Shown: one piece after another, positions 1,827-24,172 of the stretch
Position numbering within the stretch: the first letter of the stretch is position 1
How the letters are laid out: each line of letters opens with the position of its first letter
Translations under genes and position numbers: made by a program
Source: Bdellovibrio sp.
Lineage (GTDB): Bacteria > Bdellovibrionota > Bdellovibrionia > Bdellovibrionales > Bdellovibrionaceae
DNA: 64,000 bases
Reading direction: 5' to 3'
Assembly: GCA_036676395.1 (NCBI GenBank)
Contig: JAKFCY010000002.1
Coordinates: 192,001-256,000 of the forward strand
Notes under the pieces: generated by a model
Told to the model about the DNA's origin: nothing
Databases searched by the model: none
The model's input: only the letters and a program-made list of their open reading frames with translations

Positions 1827-2747
1827 ATGAAACCGGCGTGGATACTTTTGTTCTCATTACTGTTTATATTCTCCTGCCAAAAAGAAAAAGCAGAAACGGT
1901 GACACCTATCCCGGCGCCGCCACCGGCACAGGATAAAAACGACGTTTGTGAAAAAATCAAATTAAGCGAAAATTATATTGAATCTGCCGGTATCATCGGT
2001 GGCAGTCGAGTCTTAGCGACAGATGCTGATTCTAAATCTACAGCCATGATTATTGCGACCGAAAAAAGCACGGGCAATTCATTTGTTTGTACAGCTACGC
2101 CAATCACTTCACGCACCTTAATCACGGCAGCCCATTGTTTAGACCGTGCGGCTAAAGTCACAGCCGTTTTTTATGCCGACCTCACGTGCGCCAGTGGCTT
2201 TAGATTTAGCCGCGATACCATTCGTGCCACAGATTTTAAATATCATCCAGACTATAATCCCAACACCATGAATAGTGCTAATCCTGATATTGGTTTAGTG
2301 CATTTAGCTTCAGAGATTAAGCCGGGTTATCCCATCTATGAAATTAATCATGCGCCTGAAACTTTAAATTCAGAATTACTTTTATACGGGTACGGAATTA
2401 CCGGTTCAAATAATAGCGATAGTACCGTATTACGTAAGGTGACTCTTGCGCGGGCCGAGTATGGTTTTGAACTTAGCTCGATTGTGATTGAAAATAATGG
2501 TATGCGCGGAATATGCCTTGGCGACTCTGGGGGGCCAGGGCTTGTGCGTGTCGCAGACAAATTGCAAATTGCCAGCGTAAATTCATTTGGCTATGGCCCA
2601 CGTAATGATGTGTGCGGCGGGCGCAGCAGTTTGATTTTGATTCATCCGTTTATGCCGTGGATTCGTGAAACCTTAAATAAATGGGGCGAAGCCTTGCAAG
2701 AACCCCAGATTCCAGCCTTGCCGCCAGGGCCGCCAGCAGTTAATTAG
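1827..2747 (+). CDS. Trypsin-like (S1) serine protease lipoprotein
   Basis: Lipobox IFSC; IIGG, TAAHC, DIG, GDSGGP. Confidence 0.9.
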   Translation: MKPAWILLFSLLFIFSCQKEKAETVTPIPAPPPAQDKNDVCEKIKLSENYIESAGIIGGSRVLATDADSKSTAMIIATEKSTGNSFVCTATPITSRTLITAAHCLDRAAKVTAVFYADLTCASGFRFSRDTIRATDFKYHPDYNPNTMNSANPDIGLVHLASEIKPGYPIYEINHAPETLNSELLLYGYGITGSNNSDSTVLRKVTLARAEYGFELSSIVIENNGMRGICLGDSGGPGLVRVADKLQIASVNSFGYGPRNDVCGGRSSLILIHPFMPWIRETLNKWGEALQEPQIPALPPGPPAVN

Positions 2748-5157: not shown

Positions 5158-6054
5158 ATGAAGCACTTTTCGGTCCATAAGAATTTTTTTCCAGAAGCTA
5201 AAAAACTTCGTTCTGAATTTGATCAGAATTTTTCTAACCCACGCACAACAGATAATAAACGTTTTGTGTGGGATTACTGGTACTTCGAAGATCAGTACCA
5301 TTTAATTAGAACCCCAGCTTTTTATTATTTCACAAAAAAGATTTATCAAAATTTTCACTCGCAACTTGTACAGTGGGGTCGTGAAAATTTAGGCTGTCAT
5401 GATATCTCGCCTCCGTGGATGAGTTATTATGTCGATGGCTGTTACCAGAATTTACATTCTGATGTTCCGCATGGCCCGTGGGCTTTTGTGTATTCATTAA
5501 CGATTGATCCTAAAGCTTTTCGCGGTGGTGAAACGTTAATCATGAAGCCAGATGTTTTAGATTACTGGCCAGGTTTTCAAGATCAGCAAGATCGCGAATA
5601 CCAAAGTTTTGTTGATCGTGTGCCGGCTAATTTTAATCAGTTAGTTGTCTTTGATCCACGTTTTCCACACGGGGTAACCGAAGTTAAAGGCACGCGTGAT
5701 CCACAAAAGGCGCGTTTAGTGATTCATGGTTGGTTCGTCGAGCCGCGCCCCTATGTGGTCGGCGGATTAACAACCGCGCAGGTGCAAAAGCCGTTATCAG
5801 AAGCGATGTTTGTGTTCTCGGAAGAAATCGCTAAACTTAATCCTTCGCACGGAACAGTGTCGCTGCGCTTAGAAATTTCTACAGCCGGAAACGTTGTGAA
5901 CTATCAAGAAGTAACAAATACGTTAATTTCATTAGTGCATGAAGAAAAAGAAATTCTTCACACTAAAAAATTGATGAAGAGTCTTTTTACGCAAATGCAG
6001 TTTCCGAAATCTAAGAAAAAGTCGTTTTTAACGATTCCAATTTTATTTAAATAG
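5158..6054 (+). CDS. 2OG-Fe(II) oxygenase family protein
   Basis: HxD ('LHSD'), 'GGET', 'HGV..V', R motif. Confidence 0.75.
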   Translation: MKHFSVHKNFFPEAKKLRSEFDQNFSNPRTTDNKRFVWDYWYFEDQYHLIRTPAFYYFTKKIYQNFHSQLVQWGRENLGCHDISPPWMSYYVDGCYQNLHSDVPHGPWAFVYSLTIDPKAFRGGETLIMKPDVLDYWPGFQDQQDREYQSFVDRVPANFNQLVVFDPRFPHGVTEVKGTRDPQKARLVIHGWFVEPRPYVVGGLTTAQVQKPLSEAMFVFSEEIAKLNPSHGTVSLRLEISTAGNVVNYQEVTNTLISLVHEEKEILHTKKLMKSLFTQMQFPKSKKKSFLTIPILFK

Positions 6055-6063
6055 AAGGTTCTT

Positions 6064-7017
6064 ATGACTCTGACCCAATTAAGTTATGTTGTAGCTGTTG
6101 ATAAATATAAAAACTTTGGCCAAGCCGCTGAAAGTTGTTCGATCACCCAGCCAACATTATCAATGCAGATTCAAAAGTTAGAAGAAGAACTGGGTGTACA
6201 AATTTTTGATCGCAGTCACCAGCCTGTGAAAACGACAAAAATCGGGGCAGCCTTAGTTATTCAGGCGCGAGTGATTTTAACAGAGAGCCAACATTTTCAT
6301 GAAATTATTCAAGACAGCAACGGCGAAGTTAAAGGTGAGGTAACGATTGGTGTAATTCCGACGTTAGCGCCATACTTATTGCCATTATTCTTAAAAAAAT
6401 TCAGTGTTAAGCACCCGAATTTACAAATCCATGTTGAAGAGCTGCAAACTGAACAGATCATCGAACGTCTTAAAGCAAGTTCTTTAGACGTAGGGTTATT
6501 AGTTACGCCGATTGAAGATGTACACCTTGAATCAGTTCCTCTTTTTTATGAACCGTTTATGGTTTATGCTTCTGAAAAAAGTGCTTTAATGAGTAAAGCT
6601 AAAGTTCAGCAGACTGATTTAAACTCGAATGATTTATGGTTATTAACTGAAGGCCATTGTTTTCGTGATCAATCGCTAACGATTTGTCGTAACCGCAAAA
6701 AAACTACAGATATCAATCGCAATATTAAATTAGAATCAGGAAGTCTTGAAACTTTACGTCGTATGGTTGATCAAGAAACTGGTTTTACATTGTTACCGTA
6801 TTTAGCGGCCCAAGATGTCGATAATAAAAAGCAACTTAAAGAATTTGCCTCGCCAATTCCAACACGTGAAGTAAGTTTGATCTATAATGTCCACTTTAAA
6901 CGTAATGCTTTTAAAGAATCTTTGATTGAAACCATTCAAAAAACATTACCTAAAGAAATTCATGTGACGCCGGCTAAAAACACTCAGATCGTGGATTTGC
7001 CGATGGGTAATAAATAA
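6064..7017 (+). CDS. oxyR: Hydrogen-peroxide-inducible LysR regulator OxyR
   Basis: 'QPTLSMQIQKLEEELG', 'GHCFRDQ....C', 'SLETLRRMV'. Confidence 0.85.
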   Translation: MTLTQLSYVVAVDKYKNFGQAAESCSITQPTLSMQIQKLEEELGVQIFDRSHQPVKTTKIGAALVIQARVILTESQHFHEIIQDSNGEVKGEVTIGVIPTLAPYLLPLFLKKFSVKHPNLQIHVEELQTEQIIERLKASSLDVGLLVTPIEDVHLESVPLFYEPFMVYASEKSALMSKAKVQQTDLNSNDLWLLTEGHCFRDQSLTICRNRKKTTDINRNIKLESGSLETLRRMVDQETGFTLLPYLAAQDVDNKKQLKEFASPIPTREVSLIYNVHFKRNAFKESLIETIQKTLPKEIHVTPAKNTQIVDLPMGNK

Positions 7018-12593: not shown

Positions 12594-12606
12594 AATTTAG
12601 GTCTTT

Positions 12607-12940
12607 AAAATGCAAAAAGCGAAATGAGCTTACGCCATTTCGCTTTTACAAGATATTCAGGCTTCATTCCGAAGAAAGGAGCCGAATATCGGAACTTATA
12701 TATCCACGTATATAACTTTTCGGAATAATAAGCGAAAACTTAAGTATTACCTCTGGCTAGTTTTATGTCTTCTCGAAGTCATAAAGCGTATCTTAGACTT
12801 AATACGATAGAGTCAGTTTGTTAGAGGATTCTTTCTAGATCACCGTCTGCGTACATTGATCATCGGAAGAAGTTTCGGGTAAATTGGAAAAGTCACTGCG
12901 TGACTGCGCAGAGACCTAATTCGGAATGGCGTTAAGCTCA
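12607..12940 (+). other. Structured element 1: candidate type I toxin-antitoxin-like locus
   Basis: 5' hairpin 12615-12647; SD-sequestering stem 12652-12690; micro-ORF 12688-12810; 5'-3' pairing 12625-12642/12922-12940; same layout as 22557-22861. Confidence 0.6.
12688..12810 (+). CDS. 40-codon basic/hydrophobic micro-ORF with ATC at the start position (putative toxin, or inactivated copy)
   Basis: AAAGGAG 12675-12681, ATC 6 nt later; IGTYISTYITFRNNKRKLKYYLWLVLCLLEVIKRILDLIR*. Confidence 0.45.
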   Translation: MGTYISTYITFRNNKRKLKYYLWLVLCLLEVIKRILDLIR

Positions 12941-14767
12941 CTTACTTACTAAGTGAGCGAGCTCTTGTTTTTTAATCTCTAAATTTTCCATGTGATTCAT
13001 CAAAGCTTCTTCCATGTTTTCAGTCTCAGTGTTTAAAGCTGCGGCCTGTTTGGCTAATTCTTGCGCCTGTTGGCCTTGAGCGGTGATCAGAGTCGAAGTT
13101 AATTCAGTTTGTTTTTCAGCTTGGCGAAATAATAACTCTTCGGTTTTAAGAATTTTTCGCTCTAATTCTTTAATTTCAGAATTTAAACGTTTGGTTTCTT
13201 CTTTATAGTTAAACTTTTTCTCTGAAGATTCAGAGTTAGTCACAACTTTTTCCACCACGATTGGCGTATCAACGCGTTCGCTTAAGATGCCCTTTTCTAA
13301 ACTCCATAAGTATTCGTCATATGACCCTAAGTATTTTTCGATCGTGCCGTTTCTGACTTCGACAATTTGTGTAGTCACTTGTTTTAGAAAAGTACGATCA
13401 TGGCTGACTAAGATCACTGTGCCGTTAAACTCAGAAAGCGCTACAGCTAGGGCATTCACGGTATCAAAATCTAAGTGATTCGTTGGCTCATCCAGAAGTA
13501 AGAGTGGATTTTTTTGTAATAACACTTGGCCTAAGGCCACGCGTGTTTTTTCGCCGCCAGAAAGCACTTTGATTTTTTTATAAATGCTATCGCCAGAAAA
13601 CAACAAAGAGCCTGCCATATTTAAAATGTCTTGAGCCATATTGTCTTTATGAGCTTTTCGTTGAAGCGCGTCTAAGACGGTATCGTTATCTAATAAATCA
13701 TCGGCTAAGTGCTGGGCAAAATAAGAATGGCGCACTTGATGGCCCCATTTAAGTTCGCCTGTGATTAACGGAATTTTTTCAGCAATAGATTTTAATAACG
13801 TCGATTTACCGGCGCCGTTAAAACCAACAATACCAATTTTTTGACCGCGCTCGATCGTGACGTTCACATTTTTAAGAATAACTTTATCTGCACTATAACC
13901 AAGATTGGCATTTGTCAGAGATAAAATTTCTTTTCCGGTCGGTGTAGCTACGGGTAAGTTAATAATCGCCCGCGGCGGTAATTTCTTGATTTCGACTTGT
14001 TCTAAGCGATCTAAACTTTTCAAGCGACTTTGCGCTTGTTTGGCTTTGGTGGCTTTAGCTCTGAATTTATCGACGAAATCTTGAATGTGCTTACGTTTGT
14101 TTTCGATTTGCACAGCTTTGGCTTCTAATAAACGCTTTAATTCAGCCTTTTGTTCGAAGTAATCATCAATATGACCCGGAAATTTCACAATATCACCAGC
14201 TTCGACTTCTAAAGTGTATTCAGTCGTGCGACGTAAAAATTCGCGGTCATGCGAGATCAATAAAAACGCCTGTTTATGATTTTGCAAAAAGTTTTCTAAA
14301 GTTAGAATGCTTTCTAAATCTAAAAAGTTGGTCGGCTCATCCAAAAGCATGATGTCTGGCTCTAGCCCGATCAGGTAAAGAAGCTTCATGCGCATACGAT
14401 AGCCGCCTGAAAGCTGTGTCAATTTTCCGGCAAAGTGACTCTCTTGTAAGCCAAGCCCAAGGCCGATTTGCTTTAATTCCCAAATGGGCTTGATGCAATT
14501 GTCTTTAAGGTAGTCTTCAGAGTTCACATCGACTGTCCAATCGGACTCTTGCTCGAGGTAGCCGATGCGTAAACCATTAGCTTTTGTGACTTCGCCGTTA
14601 TCTAAATGCTCTATACCCACGATAATTTTGAATAGAGTGGATTTGCCAGCTCCATTGGGGCCGATCACGCCAACGTGTTCGCCTTGATTAATGGAAAAGC
14701 CGGCGTTATCAAAAAGGATTTTTGAGCCATATTGCTTAGATGCATTGTAGAGTTGAAGCAGATTCAT
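12938..14767 (-). CDS. ABC-F family ATPase
   Basis: Two ABC cassettes (GPNGAGKS/LSGG/LDEPTN), linker, C-terminal coiled coil, no TM segments. Confidence 0.92.
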   Translation of the reverse strand: MNLLQLYNASKQYGSKILFDNAGFSINQGEHVGVIGPNGAGKSTLFKIIVGIEHLDNGEVTKANGLRIGYLEQESDWTVDVNSEDYLKDNCIKPIWELKQIGLGLGLQESHFAGKLTQLSGGYRMRMKLLYLIGLEPDIMLLDEPTNFLDLESILTLENFLQNHKQAFLLISHDREFLRRTTEYTLEVEAGDIVKFPGHIDDYFEQKAELKRLLEAKAVQIENKRKHIQDFVDKFRAKATKAKQAQSRLKSLDRLEQVEIKKLPPRAIINLPVATPTGKEILSLTNANLGYSADKVILKNVNVTIERGQKIGIVGFNGAGKSTLLKSIAEKIPLITGELKWGHQVRHSYFAQHLADDLLDNDTVLDALQRKAHKDNMAQDILNMAGSLLFSGDSIYKKIKVLSGGEKTRVALGQVLLQKNPLLLLDEPTNHLDFDTVNALAVALSEFNGTVILVSHDRTFLKQVTTQIVEVRNGTIEKYLGSYDEYLWSLEKGILSERVDTPIVVEKVVTNSESSEKKFNYKEETKRLNSEIKELERKILKTEELLFRQAEKQTELTSTLITAQGQQAQELAKQAAALNTETENMEEALMNHMENLEIKKQELAHLVSK

Positions 14768-19716: not shown

Positions 19717-21783
19717 ATGGCCTTCTTTAACAACTTAATAAAAATCAGTGTTTTTAGTTTTTTAATAATTGCTGGTTTTCAGGCCGAAGCTGCTGACAAA
19801 TGTGCGAGCGCTGATAAAGCAAAATATTTAAAGGCGGGAAGTTTTGAATCTGCTCCTGGCCAAAGAATTATTCGCTTCAAACAATTACGAGATGATTTAA
19901 AGGGTGCATTAGAAAAAGGTGAAGCCGATCGTTCACAATGTTTGTATGATCTTTATGATAAATCCGCGCAAGACGAAGCCGGATTTTGGCAAGCTAAAGC
20001 AGCTGCAGAAGGTTGCGATTTAGAAAATCCTAAAGAATGTCCGGATCCAGAGACGCCGCGCAGTTTAAAATTTTTAGAGAACATCCATAAAGAACTTGAA
20101 GCTGATTTAAAAGAAGACATCGCAAAAATTCCAGCAACAGAAGCAGCAGCTGCGGCTGAATGTAATGATTGCGAAGTGAATACAGATTTAGAAGATCAAG
20201 CCGCACTTGCAGATTACTTAAAGCATGATCAATGCTGCGGATCTAAGGATGCTAAAACGGATGGAGAAATGGGCATCGTGCGTGAGCGATACGCTGGTAT
20301 TTCTTACAATCAATGTTTAGCTAAAACAGATAAGAATGCTAAAGCGAGCGGACTACAAACGGCAGGCTCTTGTATCGCTGGTTTAGTGATGAGCGTATTT
20401 AAAGGTATGTTTGATGGCGTAGTTGGCTTTTTCAAATTACCCGGTGAACTTATCGCAGCCCGTGCTCAAATTTGGGCGATCATTACAGATTCAGATGAGC
20501 GTGCGAAATTTTTTGAACACATTAAAAATTCGCTCTTAGAGTTTATCGGTGTGCAAAGTGGTGATTTAACAAACTGTTTAAATGCTGAAGCGAAAACGAA
20601 AATGTACTGTGAAAATGCCGGCGAGGTTATCGGCTTCTTAGCATCACCTGCACTTATCGGAAATATTTTTAAAATCGCTAAACTTGGCGTTAAGGCTGCA
20701 GCTGCAGCAATGAAGACGAGCTTAGCTTCGACTGCAAAAGGTGCGAAAATGCTAGCGAAGATGAGCAAGGCCGTAAAAGCAGCTGAAACCGTCGGCGGTA
20801 AAACTAAAGCCATCGCAAGCAAAGTCGGAAAAAGTGCTAAACTAGTCGGTATGACAGTGCAGACTTCAAAAATTGCAAAATTTATCGTGAAAGCCGGCTC
20901 GCCGTTCACTCGAGGGGCTGCTAGCGTTTACAATACTCTGGCTCCGGTTGTCAGAGTGGGTGGTAAAATTATTGCATTACCAAGTAACGTTACTAATAAA
21001 GCGATTATTGCCGGCTTCAATGCTGGTCAAAAAGTTGTTGCCAATATCGCAGCTAAAAAAGCGGCACAAGTCATTACAGCAAGCGCAGTAGCAGCACCTG
21101 CTGTTGCGAGTTCAGTGGATGATGTAGCTGCTGCGGCGGCAAAAGCTACGACGACAGCTCCACAACTGGCAGGAATGCAGCCTTCGGGAGTACAAGTTTT
21201 ACCACGAGTTCAATCAACGACAGCAAATCCAACAGGTAATCCATATGCAGGAACTCCGGCGCGTAATTTAAGAGTGAACTTATCAGGTACGAATTCACAA
21301 ATTGCACGTATTGAAACACAGTTAGCAGCTAATCCAACAGATGCAGTACTTCTGCAAAAACAAAGTGATCTATTAGCAAAAAAATCAATGCTTGATGAAG
21401 CTCTGGCTCCTAAGCCAGCAGCTCCGACTCCGGTTGATAAAGTTAAAGATGGTTCTGTTAAATTATTTCAAGGCACTCCGAAAGAAGTAGCTACGGCGCC
21501 ACAAGTAAAAGCTGCTGAAAGAAATATTCAAACGCGTTCAAAAAGAGGCGGACAGACTGAAGTTAAAACTTACGTCGCTGGTGAAAGAAAACGCTTGAAT
21601 GGTTTACTTTCTAAGTACGACCAAGAATTAAATGCTGTTAAAGGTGAAGCTGCGGCAGCTCGCCCTGCGAAAGAAAAAGTGATTCAAGATAAAATGAGAG
21701 ATGCTCGTCAGCGCTTAGATGCTTTAGAGAAAGCTGAAAGAAATCTTCAATACCGCCAGTGGGAAAATCAAGAAGCTGGATAG
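19717..21783 (+). CDS. Large secreted protein, Cys-rich N-terminus and Ala/Lys-rich amphipathic middle
   Basis: 688-aa ORF, signal peptide, no recognised domain. Confidence 0.75.
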   Translation: MAFFNNLIKISVFSFLIIAGFQAEAADKCASADKAKYLKAGSFESAPGQRIIRFKQLRDDLKGALEKGEADRSQCLYDLYDKSAQDEAGFWQAKAAAEGCDLENPKECPDPETPRSLKFLENIHKELEADLKEDIAKIPATEAAAAAECNDCEVNTDLEDQAALADYLKHDQCCGSKDAKTDGEMGIVRERYAGISYNQCLAKTDKNAKASGLQTAGSCIAGLVMSVFKGMFDGVVGFFKLPGELIAARAQIWAIITDSDERAKFFEHIKNSLLEFIGVQSGDLTNCLNAEAKTKMYCENAGEVIGFLASPALIGNIFKIAKLGVKAAAAAMKTSLASTAKGAKMLAKMSKAVKAAETVGGKTKAIASKVGKSAKLVGMTVQTSKIAKFIVKAGSPFTRGAASVYNTLAPVVRVGGKIIALPSNVTNKAIIAGFNAGQKVVANIAAKKAAQVITASAVAAPAVASSVDDVAAAAAKATTTAPQLAGMQPSGVQVLPRVQSTTANPTGNPYAGTPARNLRVNLSGTNSQIARIETQLAANPTDAVLLQKQSDLLAKKSMLDEALAPKPAAPTPVDKVKDGSVKLFQGTPKEVATAPQVKAAERNIQTRSKRGGQTEVKTYVAGERKRLNGLLSKYDQELNAVKGEAAAARPAKEKVIQDKMRDARQRLDALEKAERNLQYRQWENQEAG

Positions 21784-21812
21784 ATTTTTAAGTGTTCTGC
21801 TATAGGGGCAAA

Positions 21813-22549
21813 ATGAAACAATTAACTTTATTGATTATTATCATTTTGACCTCTTTTTTTACGAACACTTATGTATCCGCTAAAGAAAATAAAAAAGAAA
21901 AATTAAAATACAGATATGAAGGCAATGATAAAATACTAAAATATAACGGATTTATCTTTCGTGCTGATAAATCTGTTTCTGACTTAGTTATTTTACGGTC
22001 GCACGCAATCATCGATGCAATGCTCGCAAATGATGAATATATGCAAGACAGCTAACTGAAATGGATTTTCAGATTAATTTTACACCATCAGGTGGAAAAA
22101 TAACGGATGTCGATAACTATGCTGAATTCAAAGGTAAAAAAGTAAAGTTTAAGACTTTACCATCGGGCAGCGGGAATTTTGAAGATCAGGTTGCTGGCCT
22201 AGCTGAATTTCATCAACTGATCGTTCCTGAAGATGATCTAGGCGGGATAGGTAAAGGGCGGATCATGGTGCATGAGTTTGCGCATGCTATTCATTTTTAC
22301 ATGCCCCAAGATGAACAACGACAAATTAGTAAAGCTTTTGAAAACGCCCGACGTAAGAGGTTGTATGCACCGAATTTGTATATCAATGAGAATTCATTCG
22401 AGTATTGGGCCGAATCTACGACAGCTTGGTTTAATGTACAATGGAAGTCTCGTTCAGATGGGATTAATACGCGCAAAGCTCTAGAGGACCACGATCCAGA
22501 GATTTCAAAAATATTAAAAAAAATCTATGGTGATTCAAAGTTTCCGTAA
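21813..22549 (+). pseudogene. Frameshifted secreted zinc metallopeptidase (HEXXH, ATLF/anthrax-LF-like)
   Basis: Signal-peptide ORF stops at 22055; the frame carrying HEFAH, EYWAE and 'L..HDP' is open from 22037; one extra base near 22050 would join them. Confidence 0.6.
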
Positions 22550-22556
22550 GGGCGCC

Positions 22557-22861
22557 AAAAATGCAAAAAGCTGCAGGTGGATAACCTAACAGCTTTTTAG
22601 TGATACCAGACTTCCGAACTTACGGAAGGAGGTCCGATATGCGTAAACCCAATTATTTACGTTATCGTCGCCTTTTAAATGTTTCTAAAGAGATTTTAAG
22701 AATAATTATGATGATTCTAGTGATTGTCATAACGATTAAAAGTATTTAGCAATCTAGATTCTGTACGTTAATTGCTAGATTTTGATTTGTGATCAAGACC
22801 AAGGTCGGACTTAAAATCCCGGGAATTTGGTGAACATGGAATCGTTGTTAGGTCTATCCAC
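22557..22861 (+). other. Structured element 2: candidate type I toxin-antitoxin-like locus
   Basis: 5' hairpin 22565-22598; GACTTCC 22609-22615 pairs with GGAGGTC 22628-22634; micro-ORF 22639-22749; 5'-3' pairing 22577-22593/22844-22861. Confidence 0.65.
22639..22749 (+). CDS. 36-aa basic/hydrophobic peptide (putative type I toxin)
   Basis: AAGGAGG 22626-22632, ATG 6 nt later; MRKPNYLRYRRLLNVSKEILRIIMMILVIVITIKSI*. Confidence 0.65.
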   Translation: MRKPNYLRYRRLLNVSKEILRIIMMILVIVITIKSI

Positions 22862-22873
22862 ACTCTTAAAAAT

Positions 22874-22904
22874 AAAAAACCCACATTTTTTAGATGTGGG
22901 TTTT
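22874..22904. terminator. Bidirectional intrinsic terminator downstream of icd
   Basis: AAAACCCACAT...ATGTGGGTTTT stem with A/T tracts on both sides. Confidence 0.8.
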
Positions 22905-22942
22905 GAAGTTGGAACGCTGCTCCCGAAAAAGGGACGGCCTAC

Positions 22943-24172
22943 CTATAGAGTCATAGCTTTTTTAAGATTAGAATCGATTTTATCTAAGAATGGCTCTGTG
23001 TTCATGTACTTATCAGTAGGAACTTTATCGCCGTAGATGCAAACCGCTAAATCTTTTGTCATGAAACCAGCTTCAACTGTTTCAACACATACTTTTTCTA
23101 AAGTTTGTGCGAATTTTGCTAAAGGTGGATTGTTATCAAGTTTAGCTCTGTGCTCAAGACCACGAGTCCAAGCAAAAATTGATGCGATTGGATTTGTAGA
23201 AGTTGGTTTGCCTTGTTGGTGCATACGGTAATGACGAGTCACTGTGCCGTGAGCGGCTTCTGATTCCATTGTTTTACCATCTGGAGTAATTAATACAGAA
23301 GTCATTAAACCTAGTGAACCAAAACCTTGTGCAACAGTATCAGATTGAACGTCGCCATCGTAGTTCTTACAAGCCCATACGAAGTTACCATTCCATTTAA
23401 GAGCTGAAGCAACCATATCATCGATTAAACGATGTTCATACGTGATACCAGCAGCATCAAATTGAGTTTTGAATTCAGTTTGGTAAATGTTTTCAAAGAT
23501 ATCTTTGAAACGACCATCGTATTTTTTAAGGATCGTGTTTTTTGTCGATAAGTATAAAGGCCATTTTTTAGTTAATGCTTGGTTAAAGCAAGAACGTGCA
23601 AAACCTGTGATTGACTCATCAGTGTTGTACATAGCCATTGCAATACCATCACCTTTGAAGTTGTAAACTTCGTGAGTAATTGTGTCGCCGCCACCTTCAG
23701 GCTGAAAAGTAATTGTTAATTTACCTTTACCTTTTGTTACGAAATCAGTTGCGCGGTATTGATCACCGAACGCATGACGACCGATACAAATTGGCGCTGT
23801 CCAGTTAGGAACTAAACGAGGCACATTAGCGCAAAGGATTGGTTCGCGAAACACTGTACCATCAAGGATGTTACGGATTGTTCCGTTAGGTGATTTCCAC
23901 ATTTGTTTTAATTTAAATTCAGTTACGCGTTGTTCATCAGGCGTGATTGTCGCGCACTTGATACCAACGTTGTACTTTTTGATCGCTTCAGCAGCGTCAA
24001 CAGTGACTTGATCGTTAGTTTGGTCACGGTATTCCATGCCTAAGTCATAATATTTAATGTCGATATCTAAGTAAGGTAGGATTAATTTATCTTTGATAAA
24101 TTTCCAGATGATTCTTGTCATTTCATCGCCATCTAGCTCAACCACTGGGTTAGCCACTTTGATCTTTTGCAT
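22943..24172 (-). CDS. icd: NADP-dependent isocitrate dehydrogenase
   Basis: '[12 protein letters not shown]', 'KCATITPDE', 'NYDGDVQSD', '[10 protein letters not shown]'. Confidence 0.97.

Follow-up and report, generated by a model that had tools for sequence, protein, structure and literature searches.

A 64,000-nucleotide (nt) stretch of a Bdellovibrio sp. genome (assembly GCA_036676395.1, contig JAKFCY010000002.1, positions 192,001 to 256,000; G000:C2:192001-256000 in our numbering), referred to below as the window, carries at positions 22557-22861 an element that we interpret, from sequence comparison and with a probability of roughly 60%, as a member of a new family of type I toxin-antitoxin systems, that is, as a module of two RNAs. 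The element belongs to an unnamed module that predatory bacteria of the Bdellovibrio type often carry in several copies, and that a structured small-peptide gene family underlies it appears established almost beyond doubt. Comparison of the copies brought out the peptide, the RNA helices, the strand to which each helix belongs and a set of promoter-like boxes. An initial annotation had named five features of a candidate type I locus, namely a 5' hairpin, a Shine-Dalgarno sequence (SD) with an upstream partner, a frame for a 36-residue peptide, a distal box complementary to the ribosome-binding site and a 3' end pairing with the 5' end; all five are present, position for position.

The open reading frame (ORF) encodes the peptide MRKPNYLRYRRLLNVSKEILRIIMMILVIVITIKSI, whose N-terminal half is basic and whose C-terminal segment is hydrophobic, as had been described initially, and the frame is kept in relatives. 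Exactly 36 codons follow an invariant, properly spaced GGAGGT in 13 of 14 aligned copies, the fourteenth being cut off. Among the 13 coding sequences the ratio of nonsynonymous to synonymous substitution rates (dN/dS) ranged from 0.07 to 0.78 and was below 1 in all 68 defined pairs of 78, the other 10 being undefined owing to saturation of synonymous sites, and variation at third positions was observed in the family's frames. Residues K3, Y6, Y9, R10, R11, K17, E18 and M25 are invariant, and the peptides follow the pattern M-x-K-x-x-Y-L-R-Y-R-R-..-(T/S)-K-E-.., continued by about 12 hydrophobic residues and then (K/R)-S-I. These properties support the view that a small hydrophobic peptide gene is really translated here.

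Searches of the 13 peptides against Pfam at E values up to 10 recovered no toxin family, the sole match being NEDD4_Bsd2 for one of the 13 (E 0.1), and NCBIfam returned 0 matches. No likeness to Hok, Ldr, TisB, Ibs, ShoB, DinQ, Fst or their Rfam antitoxin RNAs was detected in Pfam, NCBIfam or Rfam, and the nearest named cluster in a protein atlas was DinQ-like at 0.75, which is chance level. The earlier impression that the peptide belongs to no known toxin family was thus borne out in these three collections. The peptide family is new, and no source names it.

A close paralogue, 86% identical, is located on another contig of the same genome (G000:C3:191281-191588). In a first draw of 40 other genomes, long matches were found in five, one of which holds five copies. 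Alignment of 14 copies revealed a sharply bounded conserved block, running from GG-N4-AAAAATGCA to ..CTGTTAGGnnTATCC and ending at ..TATCCAC, between unrelated flanks. A profile built from the peptides, run at an E value of up to 0.01 for each genome, matched 78 of the order's 384 genomes; the family of the window contributed 63 (of 181 genomes), its genus 31 (of 51) and a second genus 20 (of 44). When a degenerate DNA pattern for codons 1-11 was run over 185,579 species genomes, 60 stretches were returned, 54 of them titled Bdellovibrio, Pseudobdellovibrio or their higher taxa; the other six each failed the peptide profile or were duplicates, and none is among the 76 unique elements described below. 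One of these six, labelled as a Bacillota metagenome-assembled genome (MAG), lies at the same place as a match in a genome of the window's genus. At the protein level the profile found 30 proteins (E up to 0.001) among 1.84 billion representatives, and in the clusters of ten of these none of the 17 members listed carries a name. The 103 profile hits collected in total were reduced to 76 unique elements, of which 61 have an intact frame of 33-39 codons, and to 49 non-redundant elements after those more than 90% alike had been dropped.

The plus strand of the locus has an unusually stable predicted fold. The minimum free energy (MFE) of 22557-22861 was -87.7 kcal/mol (z -4.99, with 0 of 100 shuffles as good), and that of the predicted toxin mRNA at 22576-22866 was -86.1 kcal/mol (z -5.61, 0 of 200 shuffles as good); the minus strand folds well too, with a z of -4.0. 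The MFE fold of 22576-22866 is closed by pairing of 22577-22593 with 22844-22861, the end-to-end helix that had been noticed in the single sequence and that proved to be conserved and to covary. In an alignment of 12 copies from the genus, the consensus fold comprises five helices in which 94.4% of the cells are paired, compared with 30-49% when the partners are slid against each other; both bases have changed in 11 pairs, and the covariation score was reached by 0 of 500 shuffles. Double changes affect 7 of the 14 pairs of the closing helix, which contains many G.U pairs. Homologues that keep both the ORF and covarying stems therefore exist, a point on which the initial annotation had made its proposal depend. 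Across the 49 elements of both genera the arms of the closing helix differ widely, yet the 3' untranslated region (UTR) of an element matches its own 5' segment, ranking first of the 49 as its partner in 13 cases and third or better in 23. With the closing helix optimised for each strand, the plus strand was better in 37 of 47 elements and the minus strand in seven; the region of the SD and the start codon also favours the plus strand.

Within this fold the translation start is enclosed by two hairpins. The pairing of the SD AAGGAGG (22626-22632) with GACTTCC (22609-22615), which had been proposed from the window alone, is conserved. The SD itself is invariant in the alignment, and in 42 of 45 elements 75% or more of it is paired (mean pairing 0.89 versus 0.66 with shuffled flanks), the partner in all 42 being the anti-SD on its 5' side. 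For the AUG, 38 of 45 elements have two-thirds or more of the bases paired, with a mean of 0.80 versus 0.54 with shuffled flanks. Third bases are conserved at codons 2, 3 and 6-9 because of the start-codon hairpin, in which 81% of the cells within the genus are paired with weak covariation. Together these findings support a toxin mRNA that would be held translationally inert by its own fold.

The distal box GTCGGACTT at 22804-22812, originally put forward as a second sequestering element, is present and can pair with 22630-22638 through nine pairs, two of them G.U. Comparative support for this pairing was not obtained: the 12-copy consensus fold places GGAC..TCC in a local hairpin instead, and variants of the spacer between SD and AUG showed no matching changes in the distal box when the aligned copies were inspected by eye. 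A CCUCC box of the 3' UTRs is a possible second anti-SD. In the 3' UTRs CCAAGG(T/A)C(G)GG(A)C recurs across subgroups of the family, and in part of the family CCTCCAAC(A/G)(A/T)GT stands just behind the stop codon. The closing helix was also considered as the mRNA's own terminator and rejected, the T content of the next 12 nt (4.8 versus 3.5) being too weak a signal; at least five T in these 12 nt were counted in 28 of 47 elements, and the window copy is without a T-run.

The 5' hairpin (HP1) noted in the window was confirmed and is conserved in relatives, being present in all elements folded. In contrast to the helices described above, its asymmetry points to the other strand. Folding of the trimmed HP1 favoured the minus strand in 37 of 47 elements and the plus strand in eight, with no difference in two, and its non-Watson-Crick oppositions include 39 of the A.C type, which are G.U on the minus strand, versus seven that are G.U on the plus strand. 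In the genus alignment, plus-strand HP1 shows unpaired cells only, without any single changes of the G.U type. Read on the minus strand, the hairpin is followed in nearly all members by UUUUGCAUUUUU. By this comparison, the 5' hairpin evolves as a minus-strand RNA hairpin.

A candidate promoter of the FliA (sigma-28) type lies on the same strand inside codons 8-18 of the ORF, with the family form TTTAG-N15-GNCGAWWA. CTTTAG was found in 37 of the 49 elements and CTTCAG in four, the CGA core of the octamer is kept in 48, and both boxes match the strict pattern in 29. The spacing between the boxes is fixed across the family because the frame is without insertions and deletions. Where residue 17 is E, the box becomes CTTCAG (four elements), a form also found among the FliA promoters of B. 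bacteriovorus HD100. In the 29 copies collected without bias, codon 16 reads NCT in 28 and ATT in one, so that its third base is always T while the residue varies (T, S, A or I). Codon 10 is CGG in 15 and CGA in six of these 29 copies, compared with 3.2% and 6.5% of the arginine codons genome-wide. The constancy of the third base at codon 16 and the use of CGG at codon 10 appear to exceed what coding requires and fit the promoter boxes.

The promoter-mapping study of HD100 by Karunker et al. (2013; PMC3627812) lists 140 attack-phase promoters, 92 of which have TTAAG-N16-CCGATA (FliA/sigma-28). Counted by eye in its supplement 3, seven promoters marked as FliA-dependent combine (C/A)TTTAG, 15 nt and the octamer (Bd0479, Bd0551, Bd1242, Bd1623, Bd2582, Bd2644 and Bd3766; PMC3627812). 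We took as a FliA-type promoter a -35 box (T/C)TAA(G/A) or a mapped variant, 15 nt and a GCCGATAA-like octamer with CGA core, and by this definition the minus strand of the window carries a putative one. In the window's genome, CTAAAG-N14-GCCGAAAG or close forms precede flagellin genes in four of the eight upstream regions examined. Transcription from the mapped HD100 promoters usually begins at the 8th nt behind the octamer (PMC3627812), and the antisense RNA is therefore expected to start at about 22654. Two other kinds of promoter were tried and dropped. A matrix scan for sigma-70-type promoters on both strands of the 49 elements gave no recurring minus-strand place (score of at least 7 in at least five elements). 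On the plus strand, CTAAAG equals the flagellin-type -35 box, yet no -10 box follows it by eye. The minus-strand bias of the 5' hairpin and the FliA-type promoter in codons 8-18 are new results.

Since the minus-strand hairpin with its U-tract and the FliA-type promoter combine, an antisense RNA of 98 nt, from 22654 to about 22557, is predicted. The earlier suggestion that a minus-strand RNA ends near 22557 gains support from the strand bias of HP1 (37 of 47) and from a FliA-type promoter at the right distance. The predicted RNA folds to -30.8 kcal/mol (z -3.79, 2 of 200 shuffles as good) into a single-stranded 5' tail of 14 nt, one stem-loop and the terminator hairpin. The tail, opposite codons 1-5, could base-pair with the AUG and with the loop of the start-codon hairpin; the stem-loop lies opposite the SD region.

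On these grounds we infer two transcripts with their ends, a toxic peptide and an antisense mode of action. A plus-strand mRNA of about 290 nt would encode the 36-residue peptide with its C-terminal membrane segment. It would be silenced by pairing of its first nucleotides with its last, by the SD being caught in a hairpin with the upstream anti-SD and by the AUG being caught in a second hairpin, the loop of which is formed by the variable codons 4-5. From the FliA-type promoter in codons 8-18, a minus-strand antisense RNA of about 98 nt would start at about 22654, cross the AUG and the SD and end at the hairpin and U-tract (22598-22557). Its free 5' tail may contact the loop of the start-codon hairpin and then zip over the ribosome-binding region, and the resulting duplex would block translation and probably be marked for cleavage.

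Several observations weigh against this interpretation. The -35 box agrees with the published TTAAG at only 4 of 5 positions and with the genome's own flagellin CTAAAG at 4 of 6. In 15 of the 49 elements the octamer reads GCCGAATA, GTCGAATA or TCCGAATA, with AT rather than TA at positions 6-7, and TTTAG-N16-[CAT]CGATA occurs 12 times in the genome, which indicates low specificity. The boxes overlap conserved residues (Y/I-R-R and T/S-K-E) and one arm of the start-codon hairpin, and part of their conservation therefore has other causes. Pairing of CTAAAG with the U-run that follows the hairpin is also conceivable, and two outliers have HP1 without the minus-strand U-tract. As to the sampling, weak profile matches (E 1e-4 to 1e-2) may be spurious, the loci L064-L123 were picked by a pattern that fixes parts of codons 1-11 and are subject to selection bias, and the family sequences are related and non-independent, so that the counts and the Wilcoxon p-value overstate the support. 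The only RNA run found, a wastewater metatranscriptome, contained 0.04 of the sampled words and yielded two 151-nt contigs of a related copy at depth 2 (95-99% alike), informative on neither strand nor ends. Placed on the locus at 80% likeness, they cover 22566-22607 and 22616-22738, have flanks unlike those of the window and in one case end in a fold-back; they are no evidence either way on transcription of the locus. From 22738 on, one contig continues as the reverse complement of the 3' UTR hairpin region; the fold-back could be an artefact of cDNA synthesis or assembly at a hairpin.

The promoter of the toxin mRNA may be sought at the 5' boundary of the conserved block. In 46 anchored elements nothing is conserved upstream of GG, and GG, T, G, C and A of the boundary motif are 78-98% conserved. 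The spacing GG-N10-GC is kept (G 80% and 91%; G 96%, C 78%). On the minus strand the motif is part of the U-tract behind the hairpin, and in two outliers, which lack the A-run, TGGCAC/TGGCAT and (G)CA are preserved. The wider sigma-54 consensus is TGGCAC-N5-TTGCW. Of its 12 positions the motif matches eight, the genome's best sites reading TGGCAC-N5-TTGCT, and a subgroup of elements has TGAA where the others have TGCA. No conserved activator site was found upstream of the motif in the 46 anchored elements; the genome carries rpoN and 12 strong activator genes. Neither the 3' UTR nor the minus strand showed a sigma-54-like GG-N10-GC at any recurring place. Transcription of the toxin mRNA from a sigma-54-like GG-N10-GC promoter is a tentative reading to which we give somewhat less than an even chance. 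Transcription would then begin at about 22576, and the closing helix one base further on. The alternative is a promoter consisting of a -10 box alone in the A-run, with the start just before the hairpin. The initial annotation had regarded the 5' hairpin and the closing helix as mutually exclusive structures of one RNA, which may be wrong: with a toxin mRNA start inside the hairpin, as in the sigma-54-like reading, the hairpin would be part of the antisense RNA alone.

In B. bacteriovorus the free-swimming attack phase is governed by FliA as its master sigma factor. A toxin-antitoxin pair gated by the life cycle can be envisaged, in which the antitoxin RNA depends on FliA, the activator-dependent sigma-54 promoter of the toxin mRNA is nested in the antitoxin terminator and the peptide is released outside the attack phase; we think it unlikely that all of this holds. 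The two RNAs would then answer to two different sigma factors, and the peptide would be freed by an exit from the attack phase, be it through prey entry or failed predation, or by a collapse of FliA activity.

The distribution of the copies bears on the nature of the element. The terminator of the upstream gene often directly precedes family copies, and in 15 of the 76 unique copies the frame is broken or of another length. At the place orthologous to window 22540-22908 in a 97-98% identical relative (L025, G018:C1:562750-567833, about 2491-2622) the element is reduced to a remnant, deletions corresponding to 22588-22733 and 22773-22863 having taken out the 3' part, the SD and all but a little of the ORF; the flanks are nearly identical to those in the window, and the icd terminator and the upstream gene are intact. 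Head-to-tail arrays were observed on a Bdellovibrionaceae MAG contig (L047/L064), with three copies about 355 nt apart, one of which has a run-on frame, and at L116, with two copies 368 nt apart. At L022 (G007:C154) two inverted copies, 2423-2662 (+) and 5966-6205 (-), bracket about 3.3 kb with a radical-SAM/lysine-2,3-aminomutase-like ORF and an ORF without Pfam match. Dispersed copies, tandem triplets, decay and loss at the orthologous site are habits typical of chromosomal type I loci. Of 43 ORFs flanking 24 elements, 31 had a Pfam match, all to housekeeping types including BipA, LepA, HisRS, LeuRS, MurJ, PBP1, DNA ligase and catalase, and 12 had none; no transposase- or integrase-named family was among the matches.

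These habits have to be set against the plainer explanation that the element is an ordinary gene for a small, non-toxic membrane protein active in regulation or stress, with a strongly structured mRNA, that the minus-strand signals are by-products of the constraints that coding and mRNA structure impose, that the 5' hairpin is a bidirectional terminator or insulator and that no dedicated antitoxin is involved. Such a gene would account for the peptide and the mRNA structure, which are the firmly shown parts, and it agrees with the coincidence of the promoter boxes with conserved residues and a hairpin arm, with the lack of a sigma-70-type minus-strand promoter at a fixed place and with copies lying often just behind the terminator of the upstream gene. 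The 37 versus 8 asymmetry of the hairpin, however, calls for either an RNA read from the minus strand or DNA in single-stranded form, and coding alone demands neither the constant third base in codon 16 nor the use of the rare CGG for codon 10; the variants of the boxes track known FliA variants. Moreover, copy-number variation, tandems, decay and loss at an orthologous site better fit a selfish or addictive module, and we judge this explanation unlikely, while giving it real weight.

Instead of the cis-encoded antisense RNA, a type I-like toxin mRNA might be controlled by a small RNA acting in trans from elsewhere, or by folding or processing and a sigma factor only. The closing helix and the sequestration of SD and AUG alone may silence the mRNA, and the sigma-54-like motif would be a promoter that is off by default in a genome with rpoN and 12 activator genes. 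Under this scheme the minus-strand hairpin and boxes are left without explanation; nothing is conserved outside the block, and the sigma-54 match is weak (8 of 12, the TGAA subgroup and the missing conserved activator site). We consider it quite improbable. Hardly credible is a non-coding mobile repeat resembling miniature inverted-repeat transposable elements (MITE) or repetitive extragenic palindromes (REP), with terminal inverted repeats and an incidental ORF. Even though multiple copies, sharp boundaries, unrelated flanks and an inverted repeat between the 5' segment and the 3' end would suit such a repeat, the frame keeps its length and shows purifying selection together with third-position variation, and the SD is invariant. 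The end-to-end pairing is strand-specific with many G.U, which is needless for a DNA repeat, and its 5' partner lies about 25 nt inside the conserved block, not at the tip; the 43 flanking ORFs, 12 of them without any match, offered no transposase or integrase by Pfam name. Judged by the marks of a MITE/REP-like repeat (non-coding, end-terminal repeats, DNA symmetry), the element was rejected as one, having a coding frame, strand-specific pairing and an internal 5' partner. The coordinates of all features are collected in Table 1.

Table 1. Features of the element in window coordinates; transcripts and promoters are predictions.
Feature	Position	Strand	Remarks
5' boundary motif GG-N4-AAAAATGCA, candidate sigma-54 -24/-12 promoter	22551..22565	+	GG 22551-22552, GC 22563-22564
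Predicted antisense RNA, ~98 nt	22557..22654	-	start placed by the FliA-type promoter; fold z -3.79
Hairpin HP1, candidate antisense terminator	22565..22598	-	followed by UUUUUGCAUUUUU (22569-22557) on the minus strand
Predicted toxin mRNA, ~290 nt	22576..22866	+	putative 5' end; block end ..TATCCAC; fold z -5.61
Closing helix, 5' strand	22577..22593	+	pairs with 22844-22861; covariation
Anti-SD/SD hairpin, GACTTCC with GGAGGTC	22609..22634	+	RNAalifold helix, 94% of cells paired
Start-codon hairpin, CGAUA/UAUCG and GCGUAAA/UUUACGU	22635..22667	+	loop formed by variable codons 4-5
36-codon ORF and stop, MRKPNYLRYRRLLNVSKEILRIIMMILVIVITIKSI	22639..22749	+	ATG 22639, stop 22747-22749; intact frame, dN/dS
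Candidate FliA-type promoter	22690..22662	-	CTTTAG (22690-22685), N15, octamer GACGATAA (22669-22662)
Conserved 3' UTR, hairpins 22780-22798 and 22807-22819, box GGACTTAAAATCC	22750..22843	+	alignment and consensus fold
Closing helix, 3' strand	22844..22861	+	pairs with 22577-22593

Among the known type I systems, hok/Sok of plasmid R1 and enterobacterial chromosomes has an mRNA with 5'/3' fold-back, as in the element, as well as a short antisense RNA with a free 5' tail and chromosomal loci that are multi-copy and often decayed. The element differs from it in having the hydrophobic segment at the C-terminus of the peptide, in a predicted antisense RNA that would cover the toxin's own SD and AUG, and in giving neither a Pfam match (13 peptides, E up to 10) nor an Rfam match. 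An overlapping leader ORF (mok) was neither sought nor seen in the family. In hok/Sok the antisense RNA is positioned 5' of the ORF, according to passages of the T1TAdb paper. AapA1/IsoA1 of Helicobacter pylori resembles the element in its small hydrophobic peptide, in a full-length mRNA locked by 5'-3' pairing with a sequestered SD and, going by the same passages, in an antisense RNA that lies inside the mRNA span and overlaps the start of the ORF, as is predicted here. Metastable anti-SD hairpins are described for this system in PMC6733600. On the other hand, AapA1/IsoA1 belongs to another phylum and shares no likeness in peptide or RNA sequence; in the element a FliA-type promoter within codons 8-18 is predicted to serve the antitoxin, and the predicted antisense terminator would overlap the toxin promoter and the 5' end of the mRNA. 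The candidate promoter has the same box pattern as the FliA promoters of HD100, as far as these are set out in the relevant sections of PMC3627812 (TTAAG-N16-CCGATA with (C/A)TTTAG variants, the spacing and a start 8 nt behind the octamer), and differs from them in lying inside an ORF on the opposite strand. Three of the eight attack-phase small RNAs of HD100 have FliA promoters, according to the same sections.

Titles and abstracts gave no literature on type I toxin-antitoxin systems in Bdellovibrio, and the T1TAdb paper has 0 mentions of Bdellovibrio in its main text. In Fozo et al. 2010 there are 0 type I loci of HD100 in supplement file 5 and 0 mentions in the main text, file 3 not being covered. 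Among the matches listed, no title or abstract links type I toxins to sigma54, and the literature on Bdellovibrio and RpoN contained nothing on promoters.

The genome of 3.40 Mb has a G+C content of 39.6%, and the element is situated in a gap of 393 nt between an ORF of 162 amino acids (aa) upstream and icd downstream (22943-24172, minus strand; Iso_dh, E 7e-71). That icd has a terminator of its own had been stated initially, and it was found at 22904-22876 on the minus strand. The 162-aa ORF (22061-22549, plus strand) contains a HEFAH motif and is probably a small zincin-like protein; its match to the Pfam ATLF metalloprotease domain is sub-threshold (E 1.4e-4, 22 bits versus a cut-off of 27.4). 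The ORFs preceding it, 19717-21783 and 21792-22055, are without Pfam match. No tRNAs were found in the window, and an Rfam scan gave nothing at gathering score in the whole window and only noise far below threshold at the locus.

The initial annotation had numbered the element as a second copy. A second close copy inside the window was rejected, blastn and tblastn having given none; the 86% identical paralogue is on the other contig, and the first copy that was meant is probably a divergent sister locus at 12600-12945 (plus strand). This locus shares the GG-N4-AAAATGCAAAAAGC motif and the hairpin with the element, and its 5' and 3' ends form a closing helix of 18 bp (z -4.38). The frame is a different one, with about 42-45 codons and the pattern ..KYYL(R/W)LVL.LLE...RI.DL.., and carries CTTAAG-N14-TCCGAAAA on the minus strand inside it, as judged by eye. 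Three sister loci were found in the genome (window 12600-12945 (+), G000:C3:85519 (+) and G000:C2:2162521 (-)), making five loci with this 5' module in both families together. The window copy and three relatives have ATC where two paralogues have ATG. Sister relatives occur in 12 of 51 other genomes of the genus (E up to 1e-5), with many matches covering the first ~50 nt only.

The module described here provides an annotation rule for dozens of unannotated loci. If the interpretation as a type I toxin-antitoxin family is correct, it would add a new peptide family that is widespread in this group and a clear comparative case of an mRNA locked by the pairing of its two ends, as well as a directly testable sigma-28 link between a toxin-antitoxin pair and the switch between attack and growth in predatory bacteria. 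In the life-cycle-gated form, a promoter nested in the opposing terminator, together with a promoter within the codons of the toxin, would constitute a new type I layout.

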